From Polyangiales bacterium (GTDB lineage: Bacteria; Myxococcota_A; Polyangia; Polyangiales; Ga0077539): a stretch of DNA of 64,000 nucleotides. Location of the stretch: positions 259,101 to 323,100 of the forward strand of contig JAWKRB010000006.1 of the NCBI GenBank assembly GCA_041389885.1, read 5' to 3'. The translations under genes were made by a program, and so were the position numbers. Positions 2,151 to 35,918 of the stretch are shown here, in pieces. Each line of letters begins with the position of its first letter. Position 1 is the first letter of the stretch. The notes under the pieces were generated by a model, which searched no databases, was not told the DNA's origin, and saw only the letters and a program-made list of their open reading frames with translations.

Positions 2151-2165
2151 GGTGTGCGGCGGATA

Positions 2166-3824
<1,659 letters not shown>

Positions 3825-3854
3825 GAGCCGGGCGGGATCGTATCATCGAAGGTC

Positions 3855-19947: not shown

Positions 19948-20048
19948 TCTCGACCTCCTGAAATGACGGACGGTTCAAACAGGCCGTCGGCGCTGGGGTT
20001 TTCAGCGCCGACGCTTCGCGCGGACCCTACTACGATCCAGCACGGTCG

Positions 20049-21470
20049 TCAGGGCGAGACGCGGTGCTCTTCGCCGACCCGGCGGCCCTGGGCGTCGTAG
20101 CGGGCGAACCACACGTCCACGCCCCCGCCGCGCACGTCGGTCCACGCGATGCCGAACTCGCGGCCGTTCCACGCGACGCTGGGGAGGAGCCCCATGGAAT
20201 TGCGGGTGACCTGGGTGACGGCGCCCAGGGGCTTGCCCTCGCCGTCGAGCCGGGCGAGCCAGACGTCCAGGCCGTCGTCGCCGATGGTCGTCCACGCCAC
20301 CGCGTAGACCCCTCCGCCGAACGCGATCACGGGCTGCACCTGGAACCTGTCCCTCCGCGTGACCTCGCGGCGGGGCACGTCGACGCGGCCCGGCGACACC
20401 GCCGCGAAGGCCAGCCGGTTGAGGGGCGTGTCGTCGTCCTCGGCGGACATCTCGTCCTCCCAGATCACGCCGAAGTTCCTGCCCGACCACGCGAGGTTGG
20501 CGCTGCCGCACCGCTCGGCGCGCTGGGCGACCTTGAGCGGCGCCGAGGCCTCGCCGCCGGCGCCCACGCGGAGAAAGAGCGTCTCGGCGCGCTCGTCGCG
20601 CGGGATGTACGTGTTGAAGGCCACGCCGTACGCGTCGCCCGTGAACGCGAAGCCCAGCAGCCCGCTCGCGGCGAAGCGGCTGTGGAGGGTGGTGTCTCCG
20701 CCGACGCGGGCGCCGTCCTGGCCGTAGCGCGCGAAGCGCGCGCTCATCTGCGCCGCGACCGAGACGCCGTACCAGGCCGCGGCGTACTCGCGGCCGTTCC
20801 ACTCGACGCGCCCGCCGAAGTTGAAGCCGTCGCCGCCGAGGGTGATGGGCTGACCCTGCGCGGCGCCCTGCGCGTCGAGGCGGAGCACCCGCGTCGCGAG
20901 GTCGTTGTCGCCGATCTCGGTGTACGCGAGGGCGAAGCCCGCGGGGCCCGCGGCGAGGTCGGGCATGACCTTCACGGTGTCGGCGTTGGTGAGCCGACGC
21001 GCCGCGCCGACGCGCTTGCCGTCGGCCTGGAGCCGCGCGAACCAGACGTCGAGCCGCTCGTCTTCGATGCCGAGGAACGACAGCGCCCAGCCGTCGGCGG
21101 TGGGCGTGAGCGTCGGGGAGATCCACGCGTCGGCGTCGTCGGCGGCGGCGCGGAGGACGCGCGCGCTCATCCCCGTGACATCGACGCAGCGCTCGCCCGC
21201 GCCGCAGGTCAGGTCGCTGGCGCAGAAGGTCCCCGAGCGCGCGCACTGCCCCCCGGCGACGAGGATCGCGCGGGCGGGGCGTCGCGTCGCGGCGCGGGCG
21301 GGCTGAGGGTGCGGCGTCGGCGCGGCGCCGCGGGTCATCGCGAAGGGCGCGCTCAGGCCCAGGGCCGCGACGCAGAGACCGAGGGTCCTCCAGCGCCGGG
21401 GGTTGCGCGAGCGGTCGAGGCGCGCGAGGTGAAGGAGCATTCCAGCGATCGAGGTGGGACGACGGGACAT
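20049..21470 (-). CDS. Secreted repeat protein with W-x-G-R/W-x-G-x-x-F/Y-x-x-x-W motifs (beta-propeller-like)
   Basis: Internal repeats WNGREYAAAW / WSGRNFGVIW / AFGGGVYAVAW / WNGREFGIAW, each followed by DVWFARL-type strands. Paralogue at 35912..37195. Confidence 0.5.
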   Translation of the reverse strand: MSRRPTSIAGMLLHLARLDRSRNPRRWRTLGLCVAALGLSAPFAMTRGAAPTPHPQPARAATRRPARAILVAGGQCARSGTFCASDLTCGAGERCVDVTGMSARVLRAAADDADAWISPTLTPTADGWALSFLGIEDERLDVWFARLQADGKRVGAARRLTNADTVKVMPDLAAGPAGFALAYTEIGDNDLATRVLRLDAQGAAQGQPITLGGDGFNFGGRVEWNGREYAAAWYGVSVAAQMSARFARYGQDGARVGGDTTLHSRFAASGLLGFAFTGDAYGVAFNTYIPRDERAETLFLRVGAGGEASAPLKVAQRAERCGSANLAWSGRNFGVIWEDEMSAEDDDTPLNRLAFAAVSPGRVDVPRREVTRRDRFQVQPVIAFGGGVYAVAWTTIGDDGLDVWLARLDGEGKPLGAVTQVTRNSMGLLPSVAWNGREFGIAWTDVRGGGVDVWFARYDAQGRRVGEEHRVSP

Positions 21471-21586
21471 AGCGTGTGTTGCCTCCAGGAGGAGCGCCGG
21501 CGGGCACCGGGGGGCCCGGACGCCGTGGCTCGCAACGATACAGCGCCGCGCGCGGGACGCCAGCGTGGTAGAAGCATCCCACCGCC

Positions 21587-22426
21587 GTGAACGCCGATCG
21601 CGACCTCTCCCTTCGTGCCATGACCGACGACGGCTCGCTCCGCGTGATCGTCGTCGACGTGACTGAGACCGTGCGCGAGTCTGCTCGCGCCCAGCGCGCT
21701 GACGCCGCCGAGGCGAAGTGGCTCGGAGACCTGATCGCCGGCACCGTCATGATCCGCGAGACGATGTCGCCCGACCTGCGCGTGCAGGGGATCCTTCAGA
21801 TCGGCGCGGGCGCCTTCGTCGCCGACTCGCACCCCGACGGGGGCAGCCGGGGGCTGATCCAGCGCGGCTCGAAGGCCTCGTCCGCCGACGGCGCGCGGCT
21901 CCAGATGATGCGCACGCTCCCGCGGGGCAGCGTGCAGCAGGGGATCGTTCGCGTCGACGAGCGCGTCGGGGTCTCCGACGCGCTCATGCGCTACCTCCAG
22001 CACAGCGAGCAGGTCGAGTCGGCGCTGGCGGTCTCGACGCTGGTGCAGGGCGGCGAGGTGATCGCGGCCGGGGGCTACCTGATCCAGCTCCTCCCCGAGC
22101 TCGACGAGGCGACCCTCGCGCTCGTCACGGCGCGCCTGCAGGCCTTTCCGACGATGGAGGCGCTGCAGGGGGGCGCGGCCACCGTCGACGGGGTGATGGC
22201 CATGCTGCTCGAGCACCTGCCCTTCACCGAGCTGGCCCGGGGGCCGCTCCGCTTTCAGTGCCGCTGCGATCGGGCGCGGCTCATCCAGGCGCTCGCGTCG
22301 GTCGGGCGCGGCGAGCTCGAGTCGATGATCGCCGAGGCCAAGCCGCTCGAGATCGGCTGCGACTACTGCAACGCGCAGTACACCCTCGAGGTGAGCGAGC
22401 TGATCCCGCTGCTTCAGCCCAACTGA
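21587..22426 (+). CDS. hslO: Hsp33 redox-regulated chaperone
   Basis: C-terminal zinc centre CRCDR...CDYCN plus an Hsp33 N-terminal domain. Alternative start at 21620. Confidence 0.75.
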   Translation: MNADRDLSLRAMTDDGSLRVIVVDVTETVRESARAQRADAAEAKWLGDLIAGTVMIRETMSPDLRVQGILQIGAGAFVADSHPDGGSRGLIQRGSKASSADGARLQMMRTLPRGSVQQGIVRVDERVGVSDALMRYLQHSEQVESALAVSTLVQGGEVIAAGGYLIQLLPELDEATLALVTARLQAFPTMEALQGGAATVDGVMAMLLEHLPFTELARGPLRFQCRCDRARLIQALASVGRGELESMIAEAKPLEIGCDYCNAQYTLEVSELIPLLQPN

Positions 22427-22435
22427 CCCTGACGC

Positions 22436-23821
22436 TCAGCCGTCGTCGTCGCTCACGAAGGTCTCGACCTCGGTGAGCCGCGCGTCGATCTCGCTGAAGC
22501 GCTCGGCGAGGCTCCGCACGAAGCGCCCGAGCCACGCGTTGGCGCCGAGCTGCTCGGTGATCGACTCGCGGGTGAGCTCATAGGCGGTCACGGCGTCGAC
22601 GGCTTGAATGCTCGCGCTCCTCGGTCGGTTGGTGAGCACCGCGGTCTCGCCGAAGACGTCACCGGGACCGAGGTGGCGAAGGGTGCGCCGACGACCGTCG
22701 ACGGTCTTGAACACCTCGCAGTGGCCCGCCGTCACGATGTACGCGGTGACGCCAGGCTCGCCCTCGGCGACGATCATCTCGCCCGGCGCCCACTTGCGCA
22801 GCACGAAGCGGTCGGTCCCGCGGACGTAGCGCTCGATGTCCGCGCGGAGCTCGGCGACGGAGCCGTAGCGGTCGGCGGGCGAGGGCGCGAGGGCCTTCAT
22901 CGCGATGCGCGCCAGGGCGGGCGGGTAGTCGCCCTCGGCGACGACCTCGTCGATCGGGGTGACGTCGCCGCGGGTGGCGCGGAACACGGTCTCCCAGTAC
23001 GAGCCGCCGCCGTGCGGGGTGCAGCGGGTGATCATCTCGTAGAGCACGCCGCCGAGGAGGTACACGTCGGTGCGCGAGTCGATGTCGCGACGGTCGCCGG
23101 AGGACTGCTCGGGCGCGGCGTACGCGGGCGTGCCGACGAGGGTCTTTCGACCGCTGGGCTGCACCACGGAGCTGCGGGGATCGTCGACATCGAGGTGCCC
23201 GGCCGCGAGATCGGCGGCCTCGCCCCTCGGGTCGAGCCGCGCCATGCCCCAGTCCATGAGGTAGACCTGTCCGAAGGAGCCGACCATGATGTTCTGCGGC
23301 TTGATGTCGCCGTGGATCACCCCTCGGTTGTGCGCGAACGCGACGGCGTCGCAGACCTTGAGCAGCGCGTCGAGGAGCCCGTCGAGGCGGCCGCTGCGAA
23401 AGGGGAGCACCTCGTCTCGGTGGATCTCTCCCTCGAGGGTCTCGCCCGCGACGAGCTTCATCACGAAGTAGTGGCGCCCCGAGGCGTCGACCCCGAGCTC
23501 GTGCACCGGCACGATGTTCGGGTGGTCGAGCTGGCCGGTCACGCGGGCCTCGGCGATGAAGCGGTGCACCGCGTCGGAGTTCGTCTCGAGGGCGTCGTGG
23601 AGCACCTTCATCGCGACGCGACGCTGGAGCTCCTTGTCGATCACCCGGTGCACCGCGCCCATGCCACCGCGGCCGAGCACGCCGTCTTCGTCGAAGCGCA
23701 GCGACGCGCTCCGCAGCGGGACCGACCCGCCGCCCTCGGACTCGGCAGGCGCCAGGACCGTGTCGGTGTGGCGCGCGCTCAGGTGCTGCTTCGACTGTCG
23801 TTCGTCCGACACTGCACGCAC
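22436..23821 (-). CDS. Ser/Thr protein kinase fused to a C-terminal cyclic-nucleotide-binding (cNMP) domain
   Basis: Kinase motifs GRGGMGAVH, AMKVL, HGDIKPQNIMV, DWG. C-terminal cNMP fold FGETAVL...RSASIQA. Confidence 0.75.
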   Translation of the reverse strand: MRAVSDERQSKQHLSARHTDTVLAPAESEGGGSVPLRSASLRFDEDGVLGRGGMGAVHRVIDKELQRRVAMKVLHDALETNSDAVHRFIAEARVTGQLDHPNIVPVHELGVDASGRHYFVMKLVAGETLEGEIHRDEVLPFRSGRLDGLLDALLKVCDAVAFAHNRGVIHGDIKPQNIMVGSFGQVYLMDWGMARLDPRGEAADLAAGHLDVDDPRSSVVQPSGRKTLVGTPAYAAPEQSSGDRRDIDSRTDVYLLGGVLYEMITRCTPHGGGSYWETVFRATRGDVTPIDEVVAEGDYPPALARIAMKALAPSPADRYGSVAELRADIERYVRGTDRFVLRKWAPGEMIVAEGEPGVTAYIVTAGHCEVFKTVDGRRRTLRHLGPGDVFGETAVLTNRPRSASIQAVDAVTAYELTRESITEQLGANAWLGRFVRSLAERFSEIDARLTEVETFVSDDDG

Positions 23822-23869
23822 TTTTACGCGCGGGCCGGGGACGGCACAAGGGACCGAGGCGCTCGCGGG

Positions 23870-25030
23870 TCAGTCGAGGAACGAGGCGTGGTAGCCCGCG
23901 TCTTCGATGCCCGCGGCCGCGGCGGTGAGCTCGAGCGGGGCGAAGGTGTCGAGCATCACCGCCAGCTCCGAGGTCTCACAGCTGCCGATCGACGCCTCGT
24001 AGGCGCCGGGGTGCGGCCCGTGCGGGATGCCCATCGGGTGCAGGCTCACGCTGCCGGGCCCGACGCCGCGGCGCGAGGTGAAGTTCCCGCTGCAGTAGAA
24101 GAGGATCTCGTCGCAATCCACGCTGCTGTGGGGGTAGGGGCAGGGGATCGCCTCGGGGTGGAAATCGACCAGCCGCGGCACGAAGGAGCAGATCAGCGCG
24201 CCGCGTGTCGCGAAGGTGCCGTGCCAGGTCGGCGGCAGGTGCACGGTGCTCACCCGCGGCTGAAAATCGAGGATCGCGAAGGCCCAGGGGTAGCTGGTGC
24301 CGTCCCACCCGACGACGTCGAGCGGGCTGTGCTTCGAGCGCATGCCGTGGAACACCCCCCGGCGCTTGACCACCGTCTCGCGAATGCCTTCGTCGCGAGG
24401 GCCCTCGAAGACCGGGCGACGGAAGTCGCGGTGGCAGTAGGGCGCGTCCATGCGGAGCTGCCCCGTGGCGTTGCGCCACTGACGAGGGAGGTGCAGCCCG
24501 CCGAGGCACTCGACGCTCACCCAGTGCTGCTCGACCCCCGCGTCGACGAGGATGCGATGGGCGACCCCCTTGGGCACGTAGACGTAGTCCCCCTCGCCGA
24601 AGCGCACGTCCCCGAGGGTCGAGCGCACGGTGCCCCCGCCTCGAAAGACGTAGAACAGGTCGTCCGCGTCGCCGTTGACGAAGTACACCGGGTCGTCTCG
24701 ATCGGGCTTGAGCACGCCGAAGACCAGGTCGCCGTTGAACGCCAGCGGGACGCGCGCGTCGAGGGGCGCGCCGCCTCCAGACGGGAGCGCCAGCGTGAGC
24801 AGGTGACGCTTCGCCAGCGGCATCGGCGGCAGGGCGACGGGCGGCGCCCAGCCGTGGCGGGTGGGGGAGTGCGACTGCGCCTGCGGTCGGTGGAGGTGGT
24901 ACGCGAGGGTGTAGGGGCCGTCGAAGCCCTCGCGGGTGATGCACTCCTCGTAACGGAGCGCGCCGTCGGCGCCGCGGAGCTGGATATGGTGCTTGCGCGG
25001 GAGCTCGCCCGCGGACGTTCGATCGAGCAT
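23870..25030 (-). CDS. hmgA: Homogentisate 1,2-dioxygenase (short bacterial cupin type)
   Basis: HSPLDVVGWDG and PHGP motifs with cupin His residues. Operon context with maiA and FAH. The alternative antisense or other-frame ORFs are nonsense. Confidence 0.65.
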   Translation of the reverse strand: MLDRTSAGELPRKHHIQLRGADGALRYEECITREGFDGPYTLAYHLHRPQAQSHSPTRHGWAPPVALPPMPLAKRHLLTLALPSGGGAPLDARVPLAFNGDLVFGVLKPDRDDPVYFVNGDADDLFYVFRGGGTVRSTLGDVRFGEGDYVYVPKGVAHRILVDAGVEQHWVSVECLGGLHLPRQWRNATGQLRMDAPYCHRDFRRPVFEGPRDEGIRETVVKRRGVFHGMRSKHSPLDVVGWDGTSYPWAFAILDFQPRVSTVHLPPTWHGTFATRGALICSFVPRLVDFHPEAIPCPYPHSSVDCDEILFYCSGNFTSRRGVGPGSVSLHPMGIPHGPHPGAYEASIGSCETSELAVMLDTFAPLELTAAAAGIEDAGYHASFLD

Positions 25031-25061
25031 CGGGTCAACGCTCCCAGGCAGGAGTCGGGGA

Positions 25062-25709
25062 TCAGCCCTTCACCGCGTCGGGCTGCGCGTCGGGGTGCGC
25101 GGCCTGAAACGCGGCCATCGCGGCGCAGCGCGCCTCGACGCGCAGGAGGGTGGGAAAGTCGTCGAGGTCGACGCCGAAGCGCCGACACCCGAACAGCTGC
25201 GGCACCAGGCACACATCGGCCAGCGTCGGGGCGTCGCCGACGAGAAAGTCGCCCGCGGTCTGCGCCGCCGCCGCCTCGAGCGCGCGGGTGCCCCGGATCA
25301 GGAAGTGCCGGGTGAACGCCGCCGCGTCTCCCTTGAGCTCGTCGCGAATGAAGCGCTGCGCCTCGAGGTTCTGCATCGGCTGCATCCCTGCGTTGACGAT
25401 CTCGGCCAGGCTCCGCGCGCGCGCGCGCAGGAAGGGGTCGGCGGGGAGCAGCGGGGGTGAGGGGTGGGTCTCGTCGAGCCACTCCAAGATCGGCAGCGAC
25501 TGCGACAGCACGCGGGCCTCGCCGTCGTGCGACCACACCAGGGTGGGGACCTGCATCATCGGGTTGAGCGCGCGGTACGCGTCGCCGCGCTGCGCGCCCC
25601 CGTCGGCCACGAGGTTCACGGCGACGTACTCGTAGTCGATCCCCTTGAGCGCCAGGCCGATGCGCACGCGCCAGGACGCGGAGCTGCGCCAGTACCCGTA
25701 GAGCTTCAT
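25062..25709 (-). CDS. maiA: Maleylacetoacetate isomerase (GST zeta class)
   Basis: MKLYGYWRSSASWRVRIGLALKGIDYEYVAVNL...QVPTL zeta-GST signature. ATGA overlap with the FAH gene. Confidence 0.75.
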   Translation of the reverse strand: MKLYGYWRSSASWRVRIGLALKGIDYEYVAVNLVADGGAQRGDAYRALNPMMQVPTLVWSHDGEARVLSQSLPILEWLDETHPSPPLLPADPFLRARARSLAEIVNAGMQPMQNLEAQRFIRDELKGDAAAFTRHFLIRGTRALEAAAAQTAGDFLVGDAPTLADVCLVPQLFGCRRFGVDLDDFPTLLRVEARCAAMAAFQAAHPDAQPDAVKG

Positions 25710-26683
25710 CGCGCCTCCACGCGCTGACGAATCTCGCCGAAGATCGACCGCCCGGCGGGGTCGAGCATCTCGATGGCCACCTCGTCGCCGTCCTTCAGAA
25801 AGGGCGTGACCGCCGCGCCGCCGTCGATGATCTCGATCATGCGACGCTCGGCCAGGCACGAGATGCCGCGGGCTCGGTCCTCGTTCGACACCGTGCCGCT
25901 GCCGAGGATCGTGCCGGCCGTGTACGCCCGCGTGCGCGCGATGTGCTCGACCAGCTCGAAGAAGCTGAAGTGCATCTCCGGGCCGGCGTGGGGGTCACCC
26001 ACCAGCGCGCCGTTCAGCGTCACGCGCAGGGGGAGGTGCAGCCGCCCGCCGTGCCAGGCCTCGCCCAGCTCGTCTGGGGTCACCGCGAAGGGCGAGAAGG
26101 CGCTCGCGGGCTTGGACTGAAAGAACCCGAAGCCCTTCGCCAGCTCGTTCGGGATCAGGTTGCGCAGCGTGCAGTCGTTCACCAGCATCACGAGGCGCAC
26201 GTGCGCCCCGGCCTCGCTGGCCCGGGTGCCCTGCGGCGTGTCTCCGAGGATCACCGCGACCTCGCCCTCGAAGTCGAGGCCCCAGGACGGGTCGGCCAGG
26301 GGGATCGGCTGGGTCGGCGCGAGGAGCACCCCGCTGCCCCCCTGGTAGACCAGAGGGTCTGACTCGAGCGTCGGAGGGGGCTCGGCGCCGCGGGCCTTGC
26401 GCACCAGGCGCACGTGGTTGAGGTAGGCCGACCCGTCGACCCACTCGTAGGCTCGGGGCAGGGGGCTGTGCAGCGCCGAGACATCGAGCGGGCGCGAGTC
26501 GGCGACGCCCGCGGCGAGGTCGCGCGCGAGGGCCTCGAGCCGTGGAGAGAGCGCCTCCCAGTCGTCGAGCGCCGCCTGCAGCGTCGGGGCGATCTGCCCC
26601 GCGCTCGCGCAGCGGAGGCCGTCGGGAGAGACGACGAGGAGCGCGCCGTCGCGCGAGCCATTTCGAAGCGTCGCTAGCCGCAT
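25706..26683 (-). CDS. Fumarylacetoacetate hydrolase (FAH)-family protein, putative fumarylacetoacetase
   Basis: ATG at 26683 in frame within a long artefactual ORF. FAH-fold motifs (GDEVAIE..G, MLVNDCTLRN). Completes the homogentisate pathway with hmgA and maiA. Confidence 0.7.
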   Translation of the reverse strand: MRLATLRNGSRDGALLVVSPDGLRCASAGQIAPTLQAALDDWEALSPRLEALARDLAAGVADSRPLDVSALHSPLPRAYEWVDGSAYLNHVRLVRKARGAEPPPTLESDPLVYQGGSGVLLAPTQPIPLADPSWGLDFEGEVAVILGDTPQGTRASEAGAHVRLVMLVNDCTLRNLIPNELAKGFGFFQSKPASAFSPFAVTPDELGEAWHGGRLHLPLRVTLNGALVGDPHAGPEMHFSFFELVEHIARTRAYTAGTILGSGTVSNEDRARGISCLAERRMIEIIDGGAAVTPFLKDGDEVAIEMLDPAGRSIFGEIRQRVEAR

Positions 26684-26767
26684 GAAGCCGAAGGGGGTAG
26701 CACGCCCGCCGCTCGGGCGACAACCGCCGGTGGTGCGTCCGCGGCGCGAGGTGTTACGACTGCGCGG

Positions 26768-28345
26768 GTGCGGGTGCCGCTCCATATCAAGCTGGTGATC
26801 AGCTACATCCTGGTGGTGGGCCTCGCGCTCGTGCCCACCGCGGTCTACCTCCGCACGTCGCTGCAGAAGGAGCAGGTCGCGAGCGTTCGCCAGCAGCTCC
26901 GCGCCGACCTCACGGTGCTCTGCGGGAGGCTCCGGAGCGGGTCGCCGGCCGAGCTCGCCGCGCGAGCGGGCGCGTTTCGCTTCTCGGTGCTCACCCGCGT
27001 CACCGTGATGAACGCCTCGGGCGACGTGCTGGTCGACTCGGAGCGCCCCGACGTATCGCTCCCGAACCACGGAGACCGCGCGGAGTATCGAGACGCGCTG
27101 GCGAGGGGCGAGGGCTCGGCCGAGCGCGTCAGCGCGACCACCGGTCGGCGCATGCTCTACGTCGCGCGGCGCTGCGGGGACGCGGGCGCGCAGGCCTCCG
27201 TCGCGCGCCTCGCGGTGCGCCTCGACGGCATCGAGAGCGGCCGCGCGAAGATCGAGGGCGTGCTGCGCAACGCGGGCGCCGTGGCGCTCTCCGCGGCCGT
27301 GCTCCTCGGGCTGGTCGCGGCCCTCGTGGCCGTGCGGCCGCTGCGCGCCATCGCCTCGGCCGCGCACGCCATCGCGAAGGGAGATTTCGGCACCTCGCTG
27401 AGCGTCCACACGGGCGACGAGATCGAAGAGGTCGCGCACGCGATCAACTCGGTGGTCGACATGCTGCGCGACCGGCTGGTGGCCAGCGGCGCCGAGCGCG
27501 CGACGACCCAGGCGCTCCTCGACGAGCTGCCCGTGGGGGTGGTGGTGTACGACGCCGATCGACAGCCTACGCGGCTCAACCCCGCCGCGAGGCTGCTCTG
27601 CGGGCTCGAGCCCAACGTCGAGTCGGTGCGCTGCGCGGAGCTCGCTCGCCTCCCTGGGCAGCGCGCCGCGATGGAGCGCGCGGCGGTCGAGGCCAGGGGA
27701 GAGCCCGTCGCGCTGACGCTCCCGTGGATGCCCTCGGCGCGGCTCCGCGCGCGCTGGGTGCGCGTCTACGACGACGGCGGCGGCGACACCGCGGCGGTGA
27801 TCCTCGCGGACGCGTCGATCGAGCTCGCGCTGGAGGAGCGCGGCGCTCGGTTGCGGGAGGCCGCCTCGGCGCTCCGCCGCGTGGCGTCTTCGATCGCCGA
27901 CCCGATCGAGGCCACGTCGCTCCACCGCCTCGCCGACCGCTGCGGGGAGGTGGCCTCCTCGGGCGCTCCCGACGCGCCGCTGAGGGTCGAGGCCCTGGGC
28001 GCGCTCATCGACCGCGCGTGGTCCGAGCTCGGCGCGGTCGGCGGCGGCAGGGCGGTCGAGGTCGCGGGCGACGGCGCGGTCGACGTGTCGGTGGCCGAGC
28101 GAGGTGAGCGCTGCCTCGACGCGCTGCGCTCGCTGCTCCGCTGGGCGGCGGAGCCCCCTGGTGAGAGCGGGGTCGAGCTGAGGGTCACGCACGAGGGGGC
28201 GACGGTGCGCGTGAGCGCGAGGCGGCCCCTCGGGAGCGACGAGCCCTTCTTCGCCGCGCGGGCGCTCCGGGCGCTCTCGGGCGACGCGGGCCAGCGATTC
28301 GGAGAGGACCATGAAGAGCGCTGGCTCTCCCTCCCCTGCGCCTAG
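26768..28345 (+). CDS. Membrane sensor with HAMP domain and a degenerate histidine-kinase-like C-terminus (no clear H-box Asn/His)
   Basis: N-terminal TM, periplasmic-like region, second TM, HAMP (VRPLRAIASAAHAIAKGDFGTSLSVHTGDEIEEVAHAINSVVDMLRDRL). C-terminus resembles HATPase but lacks the N-box Asn. Confidence 0.55.
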   Translation: MRVPLHIKLVISYILVVGLALVPTAVYLRTSLQKEQVASVRQQLRADLTVLCGRLRSGSPAELAARAGAFRFSVLTRVTVMNASGDVLVDSERPDVSLPNHGDRAEYRDALARGEGSAERVSATTGRRMLYVARRCGDAGAQASVARLAVRLDGIESGRAKIEGVLRNAGAVALSAAVLLGLVAALVAVRPLRAIASAAHAIAKGDFGTSLSVHTGDEIEEVAHAINSVVDMLRDRLVASGAERATTQALLDELPVGVVVYDADRQPTRLNPAARLLCGLEPNVESVRCAELARLPGQRAAMERAAVEARGEPVALTLPWMPSARLRARWVRVYDDGGGDTAAVILADASIELALEERGARLREAASALRRVASSIADPIEATSLHRLADRCGEVASSGAPDAPLRVEALGALIDRAWSELGAVGGGRAVEVAGDGAVDVSVAERGERCLDALRSLLRWAAEPPGESGVELRVTHEGATVRVSARRPLGSDEPFFAARALRALSGDAGQRFGEDHEERWLSLPCA

Positions 28346-28955
28346 CGGCGGGCGCTCGACCGCGCGCTCCAAGCCGGGGCGTCGCAAGCGCGAGGGGCTC
28401 GTCGTGCAGGCCGAGGTGCACGACCGCCACCAGCTCGAGCTCCGCTTCAACCACCCCCTCGACGACGAGGGCGGCTGGCGCCTCGACATCGACGCGTTCT
28501 TCTTCGTCCCGCGCAACGTGGGCCTCAACCCCGGCAACTATTCGCGCGAGCAGTTCTACGCAGATTTCACCGCCCTGATGCGGGTCGACGCGCAGCCCAT
28601 CCCCCTGGACGTGCTCGCCGACGAGGGCGACCCCGCGTCGCCGCTCTACCGCTTCGTCGAGGCGCTGGAGCGCGCGCGGCGCGAGGCGCGTCCGCCCCCG
28701 ATGAGCCCGGTGAGCGTGCAGATTCGTCTCTTCGCGAACCTCTTTGCCACAGGCGTTCGAGAGGAGCTGCGGCGGCTCGAGCGCGCCCTCGAGCGAGAGC
28801 TCGGCGAGGCGGGGCTCTTTCGCGCCCGTCGTCTGAGCTCGCGGACGAGTCGACCCGACCTTCGCTCGAGCGCTCGTTCGAGGCCGACTCCGTCTCCGCG
28901 CGCTGAACCGCGCGGGGGGCGCTCTGGGCGTTTCCGCAAGGTCCGCGCGCGCTGA
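28311..28955 (+). CDS. Hypothetical protein; the C-terminal ~40 aa look out of frame (possible frameshift near 28820-28830)
   Basis: The first ~170 aa have protein-like composition and then degenerate into an R/S/P tail. An alternative frame gives acidic ...SELADESTRPSLERSFEADSVSAR* ending at 28906. Confidence 0.35.
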   Translation: MKSAGSPSPAPSGGRSTARSKPGRRKREGLVVQAEVHDRHQLELRFNHPLDDEGGWRLDIDAFFFVPRNVGLNPGNYSREQFYADFTALMRVDAQPIPLDVLADEGDPASPLYRFVEALERARREARPPPMSPVSVQIRLFANLFATGVREELRRLERALERELGEAGLFRARRLSSRTSRPDLRSSARSRPTPSPRAEPRGGRSGRFRKVRAR

Positions 28956-28993
28956 GGCCCTTCGAGCGCCTCTGCCCGCAGCAGCTCGCCGAC

Positions 28994-30097
28994 GTGATGC
29001 GGGCCTGCGACGAGTACATGTCCCTGGTGCTCGAGGAGCGCCTCGCGCAGCTCTCACAGCGCGTGGGCGCCGACCCGCGCCGCTTCGACGGCAGCGGCTT
29101 CGTGCCCGGCGTGCGCGGCCAGATCGTGGCGCTCGCGGAGCAGGAGCGGGTCTACCGCGCGCGCTACGGCTACCTCACCCTCGACGAGGGCTCGGCGCGC
29201 GGGGAGACCGACGCGTTTCAGCGCTCGCAGGGGGTGGTGGGCGCCGGGGAGTACTTCACCTACCGCGCCTCGCTGCTGAAGAAGCACGTGCAGCAGGCGC
29301 TCTACCTCGACGTGCGCGGATCGCGCGGAGACACGTACATTCGCAACGCGGTGAGCGCCGTCGGCGCCGCGCTGGCCGCGATCTGGGCCCTCGCCGCGCA
29401 GGTCCCGACGCAGATCGCGGGCCTGCCGACCCGAACGCAGTTCGCGCTCTTCGGCGGCGCGGTGCTCGCATACGTCATGAAGGACCGGATCAAGGCCAAC
29501 ACCAGCGAGTTTCTGCTCAAGCGCGCCCGCACCTTCGACCACGTCTCGTGGGTGCGCGGCGAGAGCCTGGGCGAGCTGGGCCTGGGCTCGCTCAAGGTGA
29601 AGGTCTCGGAGGCCGTGCGCTTCGTGAGCGTCGACGCCCTCGAGGCCCCCGTGCGGGCGGTGCGCGCTCAGCGGCGCACCGTACGCCACGCGGGCGTCGC
29701 GCAAGAGGAGGTGATTCACTACCGCAAGCGCATCGCCTCGGCGGGCCGCGCGGGGCAGGCGGCGGCGCCGGAGGGGTACCGGCTGCGCGACCTGCTGCGC
29801 ATCAACATCCGGCACTTTCTCATTCGCCTCGACGACCCCGAGGACCGGGTCGACTACTACGACCTCAGCACCCGCACGTTTCGCTCGGCGCTGCTCCCCA
29901 AGGTCTACCACGTGAACCTGGTGATCCGCCTGCGCCGCACCGTGGGGGGCGAGCGGCGGGAGCGCCTCGTTCACCTGCGCATCGTGCTCAACAAGGACCG
30001 CATCGTGCGGTGCGACGAGATTCGCGCCCGCGGCGACGGGCGCGCCCAGGGGGCGAAGGGCGCGAAGGGCGAGAAGGGGGCAAAGAAGAAGGGCTGA
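28994..30097 (+). CDS. Hypothetical protein with a central two-TM hairpin and Lys-rich C-terminus
   Basis: GTG/ATG at 28994/28997. TM segments AVSAVGAALAAIWALAAQV and FALFGGAVLAYVM. C-terminal GAKGAKGEKGAKKKG. No recognised family. Confidence 0.45.
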   Translation: MMRACDEYMSLVLEERLAQLSQRVGADPRRFDGSGFVPGVRGQIVALAEQERVYRARYGYLTLDEGSARGETDAFQRSQGVVGAGEYFTYRASLLKKHVQQALYLDVRGSRGDTYIRNAVSAVGAALAAIWALAAQVPTQIAGLPTRTQFALFGGAVLAYVMKDRIKANTSEFLLKRARTFDHVSWVRGESLGELGLGSLKVKVSEAVRFVSVDALEAPVRAVRAQRRTVRHAGVAQEEVIHYRKRIASAGRAGQAAAPEGYRLRDLLRINIRHFLIRLDDPEDRVDYYDLSTRTFRSALLPKVYHVNLVIRLRRTVGGERRERLVHLRIVLNKDRIVRCDEIRARGDGRAQGAKGAKGEKGAKKKG

Positions 30098-30258
30098 GCC
30101 CCGCGGGGCTCAGAGCGTGTCAGATCGGTCTCGCTGGGACGCCGTGGTCGAGGTGCGGGTTCGGCAGGGACGCTCGACCGCCGCGCAAGCGAGAGCGGAC
30201 GACGACGCGCGAAGCAGATCGGCCGCGAGCTGACGGAGAAATCCTCGCCAACAGCCTC

Positions 30259-32405
30259 TCAGTCCTCGGCGTCGGGGACGGTCTCGCCCCGCTCGCGGAG
30301 CCACTTGCGCATCTCGTCCTTGTCGATGGCCTTCTCGAGCGCGGCGGTGCCCTCGATGAGTCCGTCGTCCGCGAGCTTTCGCAGCGCGTCGTCCATGGCG
30401 ATCATCCCGGCCTTCTTGCCCAGCTTGATGAGGCCGCCGATCTGGTGGGTCTTCCCGTCTCGGAGCAGGGAGGACATGGCGGGGTTCGCGAACAAGATCT
30501 CGACCGCCGCGCACCGCCCGCCCCCCTTCTTGCGCAGCAGCTGCTGCGCGACGACGGCCTTCGTCACCGACGCGAGCGTGCCCCGCACGCCGGCCTGCTT
30601 GTCGGCGGGAAAGACGTTGATGATCCGGTCGAGGGTCTTGGCCGCGGAGTTCGTGTGCAGGGTGCCGAAGACGAGCACGCCCGTCTCCGCCGCCGAGAGC
30701 GCCATCGAGATGGTCTCGAGGTCGCGCATCTCCCCCACGAGGATCGCGTCGGGGTCCTCGCGCACCGCGGCGCGGAGCGCGGTGGAGAAAGCTCCGCGAG
30801 TGCGGCCCGACTCGCGCTGGGTCATCAGCGAGCTTGTTGGGGTGCACAGAGTCGATGGGGTCCTCGATGGTCACGAAGTGCACTGCGCCGCGTGGCGTTC
30901 ATCTCGTTGATGATCGCCGAGAGCGTGGTGCTCTTGCCCGAGCCCGTCGGCCCGGTGACCAGCACCAGGCCCGAGCGCATCGACACGATCTGCTTGATCG
31001 CCTCGGGTAGCCCGAGCTGCGCCACCGTCATCAGCTTCGTCGGGATGATCCGAAACACCGCGCCCATGCCCCGCTCCTGCTTGAACAGGTTGACGCGAAA
31101 GCGCGAGAGCCCTGGGACTTCGTAGGCGAAGTCCATGTCGCCAGACGCGAGGTACTCGGCCCAAAGGTGCGGCGGCGCGATCGGCTGCACCAGGCCGCGA
31201 AAGTCGTCGTTGTCGAGGGTGCGGTACCGAATGGGCTCCATGCGACCGCTGAGGCGAAAGATCGGCGGCCGCCCCACGGAGAGGTGCAGGTCGCTCGCGC
31301 CGCGGTCGTTCATGAGCTTCAAGAAGCGGTCGATGCGGTTCTGACCAGGCGCGCCGGGCGCGATGCTCGCCGCGGGCTTCGCCGACTTCGCCGTCGGCGC
31401 GTCGCCCAGCAGGGCGCTGAGCGCCGTAGGGTTCGCCGCGAGGGCCTCGAGGGTCTGCAGCACCTCGGGCGCCAGACGGGGGACCGCGGGCGCGCGTGGC
31501 GAGTCGGCTCCGAACTCCTGGCCGGGCGCCGCGGGCGGGGCCTGCGGAGCGAGGGGCGGGGCCTGCGGAGCCAGGGGCGGGGCCTGCGGTGGAGCCGCGC
31601 GCGGCGGCGTCGGTCGGGGCTCCGCCGCGGGGAGTTCGGGCTCCGTCGGACGCGCGCCCATCGCCACGGGCGGCGGGCGGTCGAAGGCGACCTCGATCTC
31701 CTCGACGGCGCGCGTGGCCTCGGCCACGAAGGTCGGGCTGGGGGGAGGCTTTGAGTCGGGGAGGACGACCCACTCCTGCACGAGGGACATCGGATCGGTC
31801 CACAGCGGTCGAATCGGCCGCTCGGGCGCGTGCGCCTCGATGATCGGAGCCACCTCGACCTCGACCGGCGCCGCGGAGGGGCGGCGCTCCGGCGGGCGTG
31901 AGTCCTTCTCTTCGATGAGGTTCAGCTCCAGGGGCTCGACGTCGTCTGGGATCTGCACCCACGACGTGCGAGTGAAGGTCGGCTCGATCGGGAGCTCCTC
32001 GTGCGCGATGGACGGCGGCGGCACCTGCACCCTCGCGATGACGCTCTCGTCCTTGATGCGCCCCTGGGGCGTCGCGGCGTCGGGAAAGAACACGGGCTCA
32101 GACGGCCGCGGCGGGCGCGCGCTCCCCGGCGCCCCGCGCTCCTCGCGGACACGGGGGCGGACGAACGGCTCCTCCGCCGTCGGGCGCCGCTCGACGCGCT
32201 CCTCGACGACCGGCCGACGTCGGAGTCGATCCTCCGCGCCGGAGGGGATCGAGACACGCTCCTCGACGATGGCCCTCCGAGGCGCCCGGTCGGGCGGCGA
32301 GGGGCGCGCGTCGAACGACTCCGGCGACGGCGCCCCGTCGTCTTCGCGCCTGGGGTCGAGGCCGCGGCTCGGCCTCGCGCCGAGGGGTGGCTTGCTCCCG
32401 CTCAC
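30259..32405 (-). pseudogene. PilT-family (type IV pilus retraction-like) ATPase with ~350-aa Pro/Glu/Arg-rich N-terminal extension; two apparent frameshifts inside the ATPase core (pseudogene or sequencing errors)
   Basis: Frame A gives the N-terminal extension plus ASDLHL...GPTGSGKSTTLSAIINEMNATRR, then garbage. Frame B gives HFVTIEDPIDSVHPNK. Frame C gives LMTQRES...REDPDAILVGEMRDLETI...GTLHTNSAAKTLDRIINVFP to the stop at 30259. The GTG at 32405 overlaps the upstream TGA (GTGA). Confidence 0.5.
31530..31600. repeat. Three imperfect ~21-bp direct repeats (gggcggggcctgcggagc-) encoding (PQAPPLA)n in the PilT-like N-terminal extension
   Basis: Read directly: cgggcggggcctgcggagcgag / gggcggggcctgcggagccag / gggcggggcctgcggtggagc. 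Confidence 0.5.
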
Positions 32406-34849
32406 GACGCCGCCCCCGTGAGCCGGGCCTCGAACTGCTCCTTGTTCTCCGCTCGCATGTAGGCCGTCTCCGCCGTGATGAGCCCGGCGTCCAGCAGGTC
32501 TGCCAGGCTCTGATCGAGCGTCTGCATCCCCTGCGCGCGAGAGATCTGCATCAGGCTCGGGAGCTGGTAGGTCTTGCAGTCGCGAATGAGGGTGCTGACG
32601 TTCATCGAGCCCTTGAGCACCTCGAAGACGGCCACCCGCCCCTTGCCGTCGGCGCGGGGGACGAGCGACTGCGAGACCACGAACTTCAAGCTCTCTGAGA
32701 GCCCCATGCGCACCTGCTGCTGCTCGTCGGGGGGAAAGCTCTCGATGAGCCGGTCGATCGTCGCGACGCAATTGGTGGTGTGCATCGTCGCGATCACGAG
32801 GTGCCCCGTCTCGGCCGCCATGAGCGACATGCGGATCGTCTCGATGTCGCGCATCTCGCCCACCATGATCACGTCGGGGTCCTCGCGGAGCGCCGCGCGC
32901 AGCGCGCGGCTGAAGCTCTCGGTGTTGCGCCCGACCTCGCGCTGATTGACCAGCGACTGCTTCGAGGGGTGCACGAACTCGATGGGGTCCTCGAGCGCGA
33001 TGATGTGGTCGCTCTTGCTCTCGTTCACGAGGTTGATGATCGCCGCGAGGGTCGTGCTCTTGCCGCCGCCCGCGGGGCCCGTCACCAGGATGATCCCCTG
33101 GTGGTAGTCGAGGAGCTGGGTGAGCTGGCCGGGGATGCGGAGGTCGGCGAAGGTCGGCGGGAGGTTCGGGATGCTGCGAAACGACGCGCAGGTGCCCAGC
33201 CGCTGCACGAAGGCGTTCGCGCGGTACCGCCCCACGCCGGGGATGGCGTGGCAGAAGTCGATCTCGCCGTGCTCCTCGAAGGACGCGCGGCGGGTCGGGT
33301 CGAGGATCTCGAGCACCCACTCCCGGGTCGTCTTGGCGTCGAGGGGCGGGTGCTCGACGCGCTCGAGCTGACCGTTGAGCCGAAACCACGGAGGCTCGCC
33401 CACGGTGAGGTGCACGTCCGACGCCCCGCGCTCCCTCGCGTCGGCGAGGAGACGGTCGAGGGGGCGCGAGAGGTCGCCTGAGACCACTGTCGACGTCGCC
33501 GCGTCGAGGCCGGCGCCGGTGTCTCCCTTCGCCCGCAGAATCTCCGCCGCCCGCATGCGCACGTCCTGGCTCGGGTCGCTCTCGACCACCTTGCGGAACA
33601 GCTTCGAGAGCCGCGGGTCGGTCGAGCGCGCGCAGGCCTGGAGCACTTCCATGCGCACCTCCTGCCGGTCGTCGTTGAGCAGCCCCACCAGCGCCCGGAG
33701 CGCCTGCTCCCCGCCGATCACCCCCAGCGCGTCGATGGCCGCCCAGCGCGTGTCCTTGTCGTCGAGCGCCTTCACCAGGTGCGGCGTGACCCGCTCGTCC
33801 TTGAGCTTCGCCAGCGTCTCGCAGGCGGTGATGCGGAGCCACCAGTCCTCGTCGTCGAGGAGCTTCACCACGGGGCCGACGAGCCTCGGGTCCTCGAAGT
33901 GCTCGCAGAGCACCAGCGCCTGCATCCGAATGTCGTCGTCGGGGTGCCCGAGCATCTCCACCGCGGGGCGCAGCACCTCGTCGCCGAAGGTGCGCAGGGT
34001 GTTCAAGATCCGGGTGCGGAGCCAGCCCAGCAGCGTGCGGCAGTGGTGGAGGATCTCCGCGATGACCTCCGAGGGAGAGCCCGTGCTCAGCAGCAGCTCC
34101 ACCGCGGTCCTCCGGATCGAGTCGTCGCCCTCGGAGAGCATCTTGAGCAGCCTCGGGCGAACGCGCGCCGGCATCGCCGCCGCCGCCGCCCGCACGGAGG
34201 TCAGTGCGTGTGAGCGCACCGTCGCGTTGTCGTTCGCGAAGCGGTCGAGCATCACGTCGAGCACCTCTTCAGACGGCGGCAATTGCGCGAGGAGCTCGAT
34301 GACACGCTCGCGCAGCCGGTCCTCGGGGTCGGCTACCAGGCTCATGAGCAGCGGCGCCAGCTGCTCGGGGCTCCGGTCCGCCGCGAGGCGCTGCAGCGCC
34401 GCGACGCGAATCGGCCCGGGGGCCTCGCGAATCGCGCGCTCGGCGAAGGTCGCGCGCGCGTCGCCGCCGAGCTCCAGCGCCACCTCCCAGCCCAGGCGCT
34501 TGCGCATCGCCGAGGCGTCCTTCAGCAGCACCTCGAGGCCCGGACCGACCACCTCGGGGCGAACGCGACCGAGCACCCGCACCGAGAAGGCGCGGGCGGC
34601 GGCGTGCTGCCCCGGCATCTCCCCGAGCAGCGCGGTCACCGCCTTCGCGTCGGCGCGCGACGCGAAGACGGTCGCCGCCGCGTTGCGCACCGTGTTGTCG
34701 CTCATCGAGAGGAGCGGGATCACGTCCGCGGCCCGCACCCCGGCGTCTTCGCGCAGCGAGTCCAGGAGCTGAGCCTTCTCGTCGTCGCTCTTCCACTGCT
34801 GCTGGACGAGCCGTTGCAGCGGCGAGCGTGAGGTGCCGAACAGGGCCAT
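32402..34849 (-). CDS. HEAT-repeat (PBS-lyase-like) domain fused to a complete PilT-type ATPase
   Basis: N-terminal ~450 aa of HEAT-like repeats (…VRMEVLQACARSTDPRL…, DDDIRMQALVLCEHF…). C-terminal ASDVHLTVGEPPWFRLNG...GPAGGGKSTTLAAIINLVN...HIIALEDPIEFVHPSKQSLVNQREVG...REDPDVIMVGEMRDIETI...ATMHTTN. Start set to ATG 34849 to avoid overlapping xerC. Confidence 0.65.
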   Translation of the reverse strand: MALFGTSRSPLQRLVQQQWKSDDEKAQLLDSLREDAGVRAADVIPLLSMSDNTVRNAAATVFASRADAKAVTALLGEMPGQHAAARAFSVRVLGRVRPEVVGPGLEVLLKDASAMRKRLGWEVALELGGDARATFAERAIREAPGPIRVAALQRLAADRSPEQLAPLLMSLVADPEDRLRERVIELLAQLPPSEEVLDVMLDRFANDNATVRSHALTSVRAAAAAMPARVRPRLLKMLSEGDDSIRRTAVELLLSTGSPSEVIAEILHHCRTLLGWLRTRILNTLRTFGDEVLRPAVEMLGHPDDDIRMQALVLCEHFEDPRLVGPVVKLLDDEDWWLRITACETLAKLKDERVTPHLVKALDDKDTRWAAIDALGVIGGEQALRALVGLLNDDRQEVRMEVLQACARSTDPRLSKLFRKVVESDPSQDVRMRAAEILRAKGDTGAGLDAATSTVVSGDLSRPLDRLLADARERGASDVHLTVGEPPWFRLNGQLERVEHPPLDAKTTREWVLEILDPTRRASFEEHGEIDFCHAIPGVGRYRANAFVQRLGTCASFRSIPNLPPTFADLRIPGQLTQLLDYHQGIILVTGPAGGGKSTTLAAIINLVNESKSDHIIALEDPIEFVHPSKQSLVNQREVGRNTESFSRALRAALREDPDVIMVGEMRDIETIRMSLMAAETGHLVIATMHTTNCVATIDRLIESFPPDEQQQVRMGLSESLKFVVSQSLVPRADGKGRVAVFEVLKGSMNVSTLIRDCKTYQLPSLMQISRAQGMQTLDQSLADLLDAGLITAETAYMRAENKEQFEARLTGAAS

Positions 34850-34937
34850 CGCGGCAGTATCCGTCAGGGGCGCGGCCCAGCGAAAGGCTCTCGCGAAGAC
34901 TTTGCGCGCGCGCCTCGGGGACCTACCCTGCGCGGCG

Positions 34938-35918
34938 ATGAGCACGGGGATGGCCGAGGCGCTGAGCGATTTCGAAACCTACCTCGCTCACGAACAGCGC
35001 GCGTCGCCGCGCACCGTCGAGCACTACCTCCGCGACCTGCGCACGCTGGAGACCTTTCTGCAGCGAGGCCGCGACGTCGCGCCGACCCTCGGCGACGTGA
35101 CCCTGCTCGCGCTGCGCGCCTGGCTCGGCGAGCGCGCGAAGGGGCGCGAGGGATCTACGATCGCGCGAAACGTCGCGAGCGTTCGCGCGCTCTTTCGTTG
35201 GGCGCGCAAGACAGGACGGGCCGAGCAAGACCCCTCGGCCACGCTGCGCTCGCCCAAGCTGCGACGCCCCCTCCCAGATCTGCTGTCGGTCCCCGACGCA
35301 GGGCGCCTGATGGAGACGCCGGGCACCCGCAGGATCGCCCGACCGGAGGGGGTGGTGCTCCGCGCCACGAGGGCGCGGATCGCGTTGCGCGACAAGGCGA
35401 TGCTCGAAGTCGTCTACGGGAGCGGGCTCCGTATCTCCGAGGCGGTGGGGCTCTCGCTGAACGACATCTCGCTCTCGCCCCGCGCCGCGCGGGTGCTGGG
35501 CAAGGGCTCGCAGGAGCGGATCGTTCCTCTCGGTCGCTCCTGCGTCGAGGCCCTCGAGGCCTGGCTCGCGGTGCGCCACGAGATGGTCGACCCCCGTACT
35601 GGCGCCCAGGACCCCGACGCGCTCTTTCTCACCCGCGCGGGGAGGCGAATCACGGTGCGGCAGGTTCAGCTCTCCTTCGCGGCCTACGGAGAGCTCGCCA
35701 CGGGCACCCCCGGGGTGCACCCGCACCAGCTCCGGCACGCCTGCGCCACGCACCTCCTCGACGCCGGGGCCGACCTGCGAGCGATTCAAGAGCTCTTAGG
35801 TCACTCGTCGCTCTCGACCACCCAGCGGTACACCCACGTCTCCATGGACCAGGTCATGAAGGTCTACGACGGCGCCCACCCCCTCGCGCGCTCTGCCGCC
35901 GAGGGCGACGATCAGTAG
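34938..35918 (+). CDS. xerC: Tyrosine recombinase XerC/XerD family
   Basis: N-terminal core-binding domain (FETYLAHEQRASPRTVEHYLRDL). Catalytic R...HxxR...Y (LRHACATHLL, TQRYTHV). Alternative start at 34950. Confidence 0.7.
   Translation: MSTGMAEALSDFETYLAHEQRASPRTVEHYLRDLRTLETFLQRGRDVAPTLGDVTLLALRAWLGERAKGREGSTIARNVASVRALFRWARKTGRAEQDPSATLRSPKLRRPLPDLLSVPDAGRLMETPGTRRIARPEGVVLRATRARIALRDKAMLEVVYGSGLRISEAVGLSLNDISLSPRAARVLGKGSQERIVPLGRSCVEALEAWLAVRHEMVDPRTGAQDPDALFLTRAGRRITVRQVQLSFAAYGELATGTPGVHPHQLRHACATHLLDAGADLRAIQELLGHSSLSTTQRYTHVSMDQVMKVYDGAHPLARSAAEGDDQ

Follow-up and report, generated by a model that had tools for sequence, protein, structure and literature searches.

Sensor histidine kinases of the WalK (YycG)/VicK/PhoR type share a common layout, in which a transmembrane (TM) helix, an extracytoplasmic PDC/sCache-like domain and a second TM helix are followed by HAMP, PAS, DHp and CA domains. 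WalK is acted upon by WalH and WalI (YycH and YycI), which do so via contacts in or at the membrane. DivL carries a recognizable HisKA/HATPase_c core, in which a tyrosine takes the place of the histidine, together with several PAS domains, and is cytoplasmic or polar. In one account of DivL from Caulobacter crescentus, its catalytic output domain of histidine-kinase fold is described as serving binding or sensing rather than phosphotransfer (PMC4211667). LapD, a two-TM HAMP receptor with a periplasmic domain and a dead GGDEF-EAL output, is described as signaling by conformational change and partner binding (PMC3032553). Here, we report on a gene pair in a 64,000-nucleotide (nt) stretch of a Polyangiales genome (contig JAWKRB010000006.1, positions 259,101 to 323,100), hereafter the window. 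The pair is predicted to consist of a HAMP sensor that has kept the fold of a histidine kinase but not its chemistry, and of a membrane protein from an undescribed family, hereafter the partner, whose gene is broken into two open reading frames (ORFs) in the deposited sequence. The three ORFs listed by the first-pass annotation, a reading made from the letters of the sequence, were all present at 26768..28345 (sensor), 28311..28955 (ORF2) and 28994..30097 (ORF3).

The sensor is a HAMP transmembrane receptor, with two TM helices (~5-28 and ~166-189) placed around an extracytoplasmic domain and a HAMP domain (Pfam, E 1.6e-12) directly after TM2. HisKA and HATPase_c were not found in it by Pfam even at E ≤ 1, and only HAMP and a weak PAS match at residues 248-286 were retained, besides weak sCache_like/dCache matches in the sensor and its orthologues. 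The NCBIfam WalK model covers only residues 5-290, and a weak NCBIfam match to LapD (E 0.004) is confined to the HAMP region. About 20 orthologues are present in the database, with 450-545 amino acids (aa) and 35-89% identity, and all are annotated with HAMP only. The next matches are true kinases with a HAMP-PAS-HisKA-HATPase_c architecture, which align only to the N-terminal 42-48% of the sensor.

The remaining half is recognizable at the level of the fold. The AlphaFold2 (AF2) model of the sensor, with a predicted local distance difference test score (pLDDT) of 79, comprises a TM helix, a mixed alpha/beta periplasmic domain, a second TM helix, HAMP, PAS, a two-helix hairpin and an alpha/beta domain of ~120 aa. 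Foldseek places it closest to a full-length WalK model (9a5d_A, E 3e-23, from a WalK-YycH model), followed by VicK (4i5s), YF1 (4gcz), KinB (3d36), the CA domain of YycG (4zki) and ZraS, with E-values of 1e-12 to 1e-5. Over the PAS-DHp-CA portion, the predicted structure corresponds to a DHp hairpin followed by a CA domain of Bergerat-type fold.

The residues that make such a fold a kinase are missing. In an alignment of 20 orthologues, no invariant or near-invariant histidine is found in the DHp-like region or elsewhere in the C-terminal half, and the CA-like domain lacks the N, G1 and G2 boxes as well as the ATP lid. This domain is only ~120 aa long and is devoid of DxGxG and GxGxGL motifs; the helix at the position of the N box reads 'ALRxLLRWA' across the orthologues and 'SLLRWA' in the window sensor. 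Other segments are conserved in the same alignment, including a 'LLDELPVGVV...LPW...RARWV' block in the PAS-like region and the C-terminal end, '..LGGDAG....E.W..LPRA'. The first-pass annotation had described a two-TM periplasmic sensor with HAMP and a pseudo-kinase-like C-terminus, and both parts of this description hold: the DHp/CA fold is predicted, the catalytic motifs are absent throughout the family, and no complete HisKA-HATPase module could be assigned. Judging from the model and the alignment, the sensor would retain the fold of a histidine kinase without its chemistry and is predicted to be unable to act as a kinase.

The loss appears to be old. Ten much more distant orthologues from syntenic loci also possess HAMP only and retain the C-terminal signature, and neither HisKA nor HATPase_c was detected by Pfam in these ten diverse proteins, which indicates that the kinase activity was lost in an ancestor of the clade. 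The closest relative of the window is L004, a short-read contig with 91% DNA identity over window positions 17242..29508. Compared with L004, the ratio of nonsynonymous to synonymous substitution rates (dN/dS) is 0.23 for the whole sensor and 0.27 for its C-terminal half, which is still under purifying selection. A shortened form of the paired HAMP protein, with only 370-388 aa, was observed in one Myxococcota metagenome-assembled genome (MAG; L005 5884..6996, the same region as L032 2689..3855). It lacks the DHp-like region and most of the CA-like region and retains a terminal 'AWLDVPRT'. In three further orthologues (P0133, P0134 and P0139), ~45 aa of the DHp-like segment are deleted. These deletions suggest that the dead kinase core is partly dispensable. 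In the window sensor itself, comparison with L004 shows a -1 and a +1 change that compensate each other at a distance of 5 nt (27892..27897), in the variable DHp-like region, where local identity falls to 82%; this pair may reflect a real shift with its compensation, or may stem from the alignment.

With regard to the two downstream ORFs, the first-pass annotation had suspected a single protein of ~580 aa, and sequence comparison argues that they are indeed one gene, with a repaired length of ~595 aa. An in-silico fusion of ORF2 and ORF3 matches more than 130 single proteins of 520-610 aa, which cover 91-97% of the fusion, and two independent conserved genes were not seen among these relatives. 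The best matches are P0001 (78% identity, 602 aa), P0002 (76%) and P0003 (67%). In L004, the partner ORF runs uninterrupted across the break for 399 codons, to the end of the contig. Alignments to P0001-P0003 (tblastn and frameshift-aware) follow ORF2 to ~28800 and then require several hops: first into the ORF3 frame and past a TGA, next into the ORF2 frame once more, where 'FRKVRAR' is read, and finally into the ORF3 frame, which supplies 'PFERLCPQ'. These frame-hopping alignments recover the conserved 'ALNRA..ALWAFRKVRAR.WPFERL'.

The window has a G+C content of ~72%, and its coding frames are clearly marked by the G+C content of third codon positions (GC3). At ~28790-28820, the GC3 periodicity leaves the ORF2 frame and continues in that of ORF3, and Viterbi segmentation on codon-position G+C gave a plus-strand gene at 26764..28371 followed by segments 28372..28819 and 28820..30094, with no non-coding gap at the 28819/28820 switch. 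Past ~28820, the ORF2 frame turns into an Arg/Ser/Pro-rich tail that ends at 28955, and the ORF3 frame is already protein-like, reading 'SSELADESTRPSLERSFEADSVSAR', as had been noticed in the first reading. A TGA interrupts this frame at 28904, and translation in it could start at 28994 at the earliest. The annotated start at 28994/28997 is an artefact of the break; the sole exact match, P0004, is the NCBI entry 'MAG: hypothetical protein R3A48_03325 [Polyangiales bacterium]' (366 aa), which equals ORF3.

Two ways in which both frames could be used as they stand were considered. A genuinely split gene, in which two separate polypeptides would function, an N-terminal beta/helical one (~170-214 aa) and a membrane one (367 aa), is very improbable. 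Both ORFs have possible starts (ATG 28311; GTG 28994 or ATG 28997) and each conserved part is intact, but the split is found in none of the more than 130 close relatives or the ~1,860 clusters of the family, where shorter database entries resemble fragments. Moreover, the conserved 'ALWAFRRVRARWWPFERL' helix would be lost from both products, and the codon bias of the ORF3 frame already sets in ~170 nt before the one start codon that is available. The full-length protein could in principle be made by programmed ribosomal frameshifting or by readthrough of the stop codon, given that the two frames overlap and that the net shift is -1. Nevertheless, at least four frame hops and passage through the TGA would be needed to express the conserved sequence, no single slippery site is present, and the relatives use one frame, so that this possibility can practically be dismissed.

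The association of the two genes is widely conserved. In the window, the partner ATG overlaps the end of the sensor gene by 35 nt, and the same overlap exists in L004. In the five related contigs L001-L005 and in one JGI contig, the gene directly upstream encodes a HAMP-only protein of 370-545 aa; it is co-oriented with the partner gene and separated from it by -35 to +4 nt. That the second gene overlaps or abuts the first suggests translational coupling. A scan of species-representative genomes yielded 79 partner loci, all from MAGs. With the window sensor as tblastn query, a HAMP homologue was found upstream of the partner in ~50 of the 52 Myxococcota-type loci that extend far enough upstream, and the pairing persists down to ~28% partner identity. 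As far as can be told from gene order, the locus appears to be a two-gene operon conserved in Myxococcota. It is this synteny that speaks for the putative 'signaling partner' of the first-pass annotation. The exceptions to the pairing come from two Polyangiales MAGs (L018 and L020), which contain members with 54% identity and no HAMP homologue within 4 kb upstream; these may be unpaired paralogues within this order.

The partner belongs to a large family. A profile search retrieved 1,863 clusters (50% identity) when E ≤ 1e-3 was allowed, of which 839 remained at E ≤ 1e-30; almost all have 480-600 aa and are matched over their full length. Neither partner ORF gave a match with Pfam or NCBIfam, and a Pfam search of 4 + 59 + 10 family members for recurrent weak matches returned scattered noise only. 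The family profile gave only noise against PDB sequences (E > 0.1), and the PADLOC defence models produced one marginal match, to PDC-S05 (E 0.02). The family, for which the first reading had likewise offered no name, is therefore undescribed, with no Pfam model and no match to a solved structure.

The AF2 model of P0001, built from 116 sequences (pLDDT 86, predicted template modeling score 0.81), shows beta strands at 29-91, a helix bundle at 108-328 with helices of up to ~40 residues, two helices with hydrophobic centers at 341-367 and 373-405, and a beta sandwich at 410-570. The two central helices form a hairpin, which had been recognized in ORF3 by the first reading and is present in the sequence, as is the GAKGAKGEKGAKKKG tail. 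Conserved basic segments, 'LLKKxVQQALYLD' and 'KDRIKA', flank the hairpin. Invariant residues comprise W358, A359 and Y387, together with the flanking charges K323, K324 and D340 before the hairpin and K390, D391, R392 and K394 after it. These charges and the lack of a signal peptide suggest that both large parts face the cytoplasm, and both soluble parts are probably cytoplasmic in this predicted topology. We propose that the hairpin anchors the partner in the inner membrane, where it could act as a scaffold, a channel or a membrane-remodeling protein. The GAKGAKGEKGAKKKG tail is non-conserved and probably disordered.

A sensor incapable of kinase activity, tight and probably coupled co-expression, and long co-inheritance together point to signaling by direct contact, and a phosphorylation-independent contact is the likeliest mechanism. 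The first gene would encode an inner-membrane sensor descended from a WalK/PhoR-type histidine kinase, with its sensing and transmission parts retained. A signal from the periplasm would travel via HAMP and PAS and cause a change in the dead DHp/CA module. Serving as an allosteric or docking surface, this module would bind the hairpin-anchored partner or let it go, or alter its state or assembly. The output would then be produced by contact itself, without phosphotransfer. Somewhat more tentatively, at a little below even likelihood, the two proteins (~570 aa for the partner) may constitute a previously undescribed phosphorylation-independent transmembrane module, conserved throughout Myxococcota with partners as little as 30% identical, in which a widespread stand-alone membrane protein, whose combination of domains is unmatched by solved structures, has been captured as the direct output of a dead kinase.

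Several features separate this locus from the systems that it resembles. The sensor has the domain order of the WalK, VicK and PhoR kinases but, unlike them, lacks the phospho-acceptor histidine, the N, G1 and G2 boxes and the ATP lid; its CA domain is shortened, and in five related contexts none of the genes called within ~7 kb has a Response_reg domain. DivL is the closest precedent for signaling by a dead DHp/CA module, and LapD is a further precedent for a dead enzyme fold with such a role. Unlike that of DivL, the sensor core has degenerated beyond recognition by hidden Markov models, in a protein built as a two-TM periplasmic sensor. In LapD, the dead output is of the GGDEF/EAL type and signals inside-out to a periplasmic protease, whereas here a DHp/CA module would face a hairpin-anchored partner that is predicted to lie on the cytoplasmic side. 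WalH and WalI are, like the partner, membrane proteins encoded beside a WalK-type sensor. In contrast to the partner, with its central hairpin and large, probably cytoplasmic ends, they have one N-terminal TM helix and extracellular domains, and the partner shares neither sequence nor fold similarity with them.

Two points weigh against the direct-contact mechanism. It is deduced from the structure of the operon and the lack of catalytic motifs, and the HAMP neighbor is absent from the family members of Oligoflexales and other Bdellovibrionota, Cloacimonadota, a Bacteroidota MAG and Parcubacteria, and from two Polyangiales loci. The family is thus widespread without a HAMP neighbor, which the first-pass annotation had not foreseen. 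The presence of the partner without the sensor in other phyla implies an autonomous function, for which the sensor is not required at a basic level. In the loci without the HAMP gene, the neighbors are unrelated and inconsistent. In two Oligoflexia-type loci (L069 and L075, ~1480..3900), the family gene follows metK, a gene of no known identity and ruvA/ruvB-like genes, as recognized by eye; in L080 and L085 it comes after a GDT1/UPF0016-like membrane gene, and one locus lacking HAMP has a PP2C neighbor.

The break in the partner gene was resolved by comparison with L004. The first-pass annotation had proposed a frameshift region at 28820-28906; a break does exist there, but the disturbed zone spans 28798..28955 and contains several hops and a TGA rather than one frameshift. 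Relative to L004, the window shows -2 at ~28798, +1 at ~28818, -2/+2 at 28852/28860, +3 at 28888, -1 at 28898, -2 at 28910, +1 at 28934 and -1 at 28954, which adds up to -1. Among these are at least five frame-disturbing indels, the in-frame TGA at 28904 lies between two of the hops, and several of the lesions alter the length of a short run of G, C or T. Of the 20 gap events counted along the 12.3 kb aligned with L004, nine fall inside these 157 nt; the others are compensated pairs a few bases apart, or intergenic. In the P0001 model, the zone corresponds to a variable loop (~170-177) and the start of helix 178-220, and R208 and R211 of the family-invariant 'FRRVRAR' (P0001 numbering) are still encoded there, in the wrong frame.

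Outside the lesion zone, the partner gene bears no trace of relaxed constraint. Its dN/dS relative to L004 is 0.10 for 28347..28796 and 0.11 for 28958..29508, which equals that of the neighboring genes (hmgA 0.09, GST 0.13, FAH 0.15), indicating that constraint on the gene was complete throughout practically the whole divergence from L004. With such values, the damage must be either very recent or technical. A long-standing pseudogene was rejected, as both values are far from 1 and all lesions lie within 157 nt instead of being scattered. The chance that six independent neutral indels would fall in one 157-nt stretch of a 1.79-kb gene was estimated at ~5e-6; since neutral decay would scatter the lesions, a single local cause is indicated, be it technical or a rare mutational patch.

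Judged from the deposited consensus, the lesion zone is fairly likely to be a local consensus or assembly error in this MAG. The source is an NCBI MAG with a contig of 356 kb, identical proteins occur in no other assembly of the collection, and two more conserved genes within the 64 kb, encoding a T2SSE ATPase and a sigma-54-type AAA+ protein, carry frameshifts in GC-rich repeat contexts. As to how such an error arose, one may speculate about uncorrected long-read sequence in a hybrid assembly. Three considerations weigh on the other side. Apart from this zone, no coding indel separates the window from L004 along 12 kb, so that any errors would need to be confined to patches of an assembly that is not generally error-prone; a real localized mutational event, such as an error-prone repair patch, would look identical; and only 2 kb lie between the broken genes at 28.8 kb and 30.85 kb, a proximity that could reflect real decay of a functional neighborhood.

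The same considerations, and the plain fact that the lesions stand in the deposited sequence next to a frameshifted T2SSE gene, speak for a real and very recent pseudogenization, in which the partner would have been inactivated in this lineage by one localized event of error-prone repair or recombination. The HAMP sensor may then now be an orphan, and the T2SSE ATPase gene may be decaying too. This scenario is appreciably less likely than a sequence error. The dN/dS of ~0.10 in both halves leaves no period of relaxed selection, and at least six indels crowded into 157 nt of a gene whose remaining 1.63 kb are free of them are unlike independent neutral decay. The invariant codons within the patch are preserved, merely out of frame, and the HAMP gene remains under purifying selection. 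The split is probably best described as a cluster of at least six small lesions, technical in origin rather than a biologically meaningful frameshift, which is a view that the first reading did not contain.

The features of the operon are listed in Table 1. A scan for sigma-70 promoters was empty, as expected at such a G+C content. The CTGAGCCCCGCGGGGCTCAG palindrome, placed where the partner operon and the T2SSE ATPase gene converge, may terminate transcription in both directions.

Table 1. Positions of the sensor and partner features in the 64,000-nt window.
Feature	Position	Strand	Basis
Kinase-dead WalK-like sensor gene (predicted), 525 aa	26768..28345	+	ORF and GC3 frame, Pfam/NCBIfam, AF2, Foldseek
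Sensor layout: TM1, aa ~5-28; periplasmic sCache/PDC-like, ~30-165; TM2, ~166-189; HAMP; PAS-like; DHp-like hairpin; truncated CA-like alpha/beta			
HAMP domain, aa 188-235	27329..27472	+	Pfam PF00672, E 1.6e-12
PAS-like domain, aa ~243-348	27494..27811	+	Weak Pfam PAS_8/PAS/PAS_4, AF2 secondary structure
Degenerate DHp-like hairpin (aa 350-395) and CA-like domain (aa 405-524)	27815..28339	+	Alignment, fold matches
Intact 5' part of partner gene (N-terminal beta domain, first helices)	28311..28797	+	tblastn and frameshift-aware alignment to P0001-P0003
Lesion zone, 157 nt	28798..28955	+	Base-level comparison with L004
3' part of partner gene (helical bundle, TM hairpin, C-terminal beta sandwich)	28956..30097	+	ORF3 frame
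Hydrophobic helical hairpin, NAVSAVGAALAAIWALAAQV-PTQIAGLPTRTQ-FALFGGAVLAYVM	29345..29479	+	Sequence; ORF3 aa ~118-162
Gly/Lys/Ala-rich C-terminal tail, GAKGAKGEKGAKKKG	30032..30094	+	Not aligned in P0001-P0003; equivalent model end has pLDDT <50
Palindromic GC-rich hairpin, CTGAGCCCCGCGGGGCTCAG	30094..30113	none	Consensus scan only; perfect palindrome over partner-gene stop codon

The pair is flanked by FAH, GST and HgmA genes upstream and by T2SSE ATPase genes downstream. The upstream genes form a homogentisate-degradation cluster on the minus strand (23870..26691), with a HgmA-like dioxygenase, a GST-type maleylacetoacetate isomerase and a fumarylacetoacetate hydrolase. This cluster is divergent from the HAMP operon, an arrangement that is kept in the close relatives L001-L004 and not in more distant ones. 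Downstream, the minus strand carries a gene for a PilT-like T2SSE ATPase whose N-terminus is extended by a long Pro-rich stretch (30262..~32419); the gene is read in three frames within 55 nt. Its two frameshifts, at ~30830 and ~30884, lie 2 kb from the lesion zone; the junction reads '..INEMNATRR / VHFVTIEDPIDSVHPNK / SLMTQRESG..', and positions 93-168 and 195-281 of the Pfam T2SSE profile are found on separate ORFs. In tandem with it is an intact second T2SSE ATPase gene (32402..34945, minus; E 9e-45), whose product starts with ~450 aa of HEAT repeats (HEAT_2, E 1e-38), an unusual architecture for a PilT-type ATPase. Farther away, at 58827..61101 on the minus strand, a gene encodes a multi-TM N-terminal half and a C-terminal half with Sigma54_activat and AAA_lid_14 domains. 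It shifts frame at ~59735-59745 ('LDRAR/ADEAVTR') in a GCGCGC context, the upstream frame being free of stops for a further 700 nt, and the switch is probably a one-base deletion or a sequence error.

The eye-catching split in the partner gene is probably not biology. It flags the annotation of a 366-aa 'hypothetical protein' as wrong, and at least three genes of the window are in need of correction at the level of the reads. The gene pair itself, whose known carriers are all uncultured, would represent a clear, family-wide case of a histidine-kinase fold retained for signaling without catalysis. For the large and uncharacterized family of the partner, with its ~1,860 clusters in several phyla, the synteny with the HAMP sensor provides a first functional hypothesis that can be tested.

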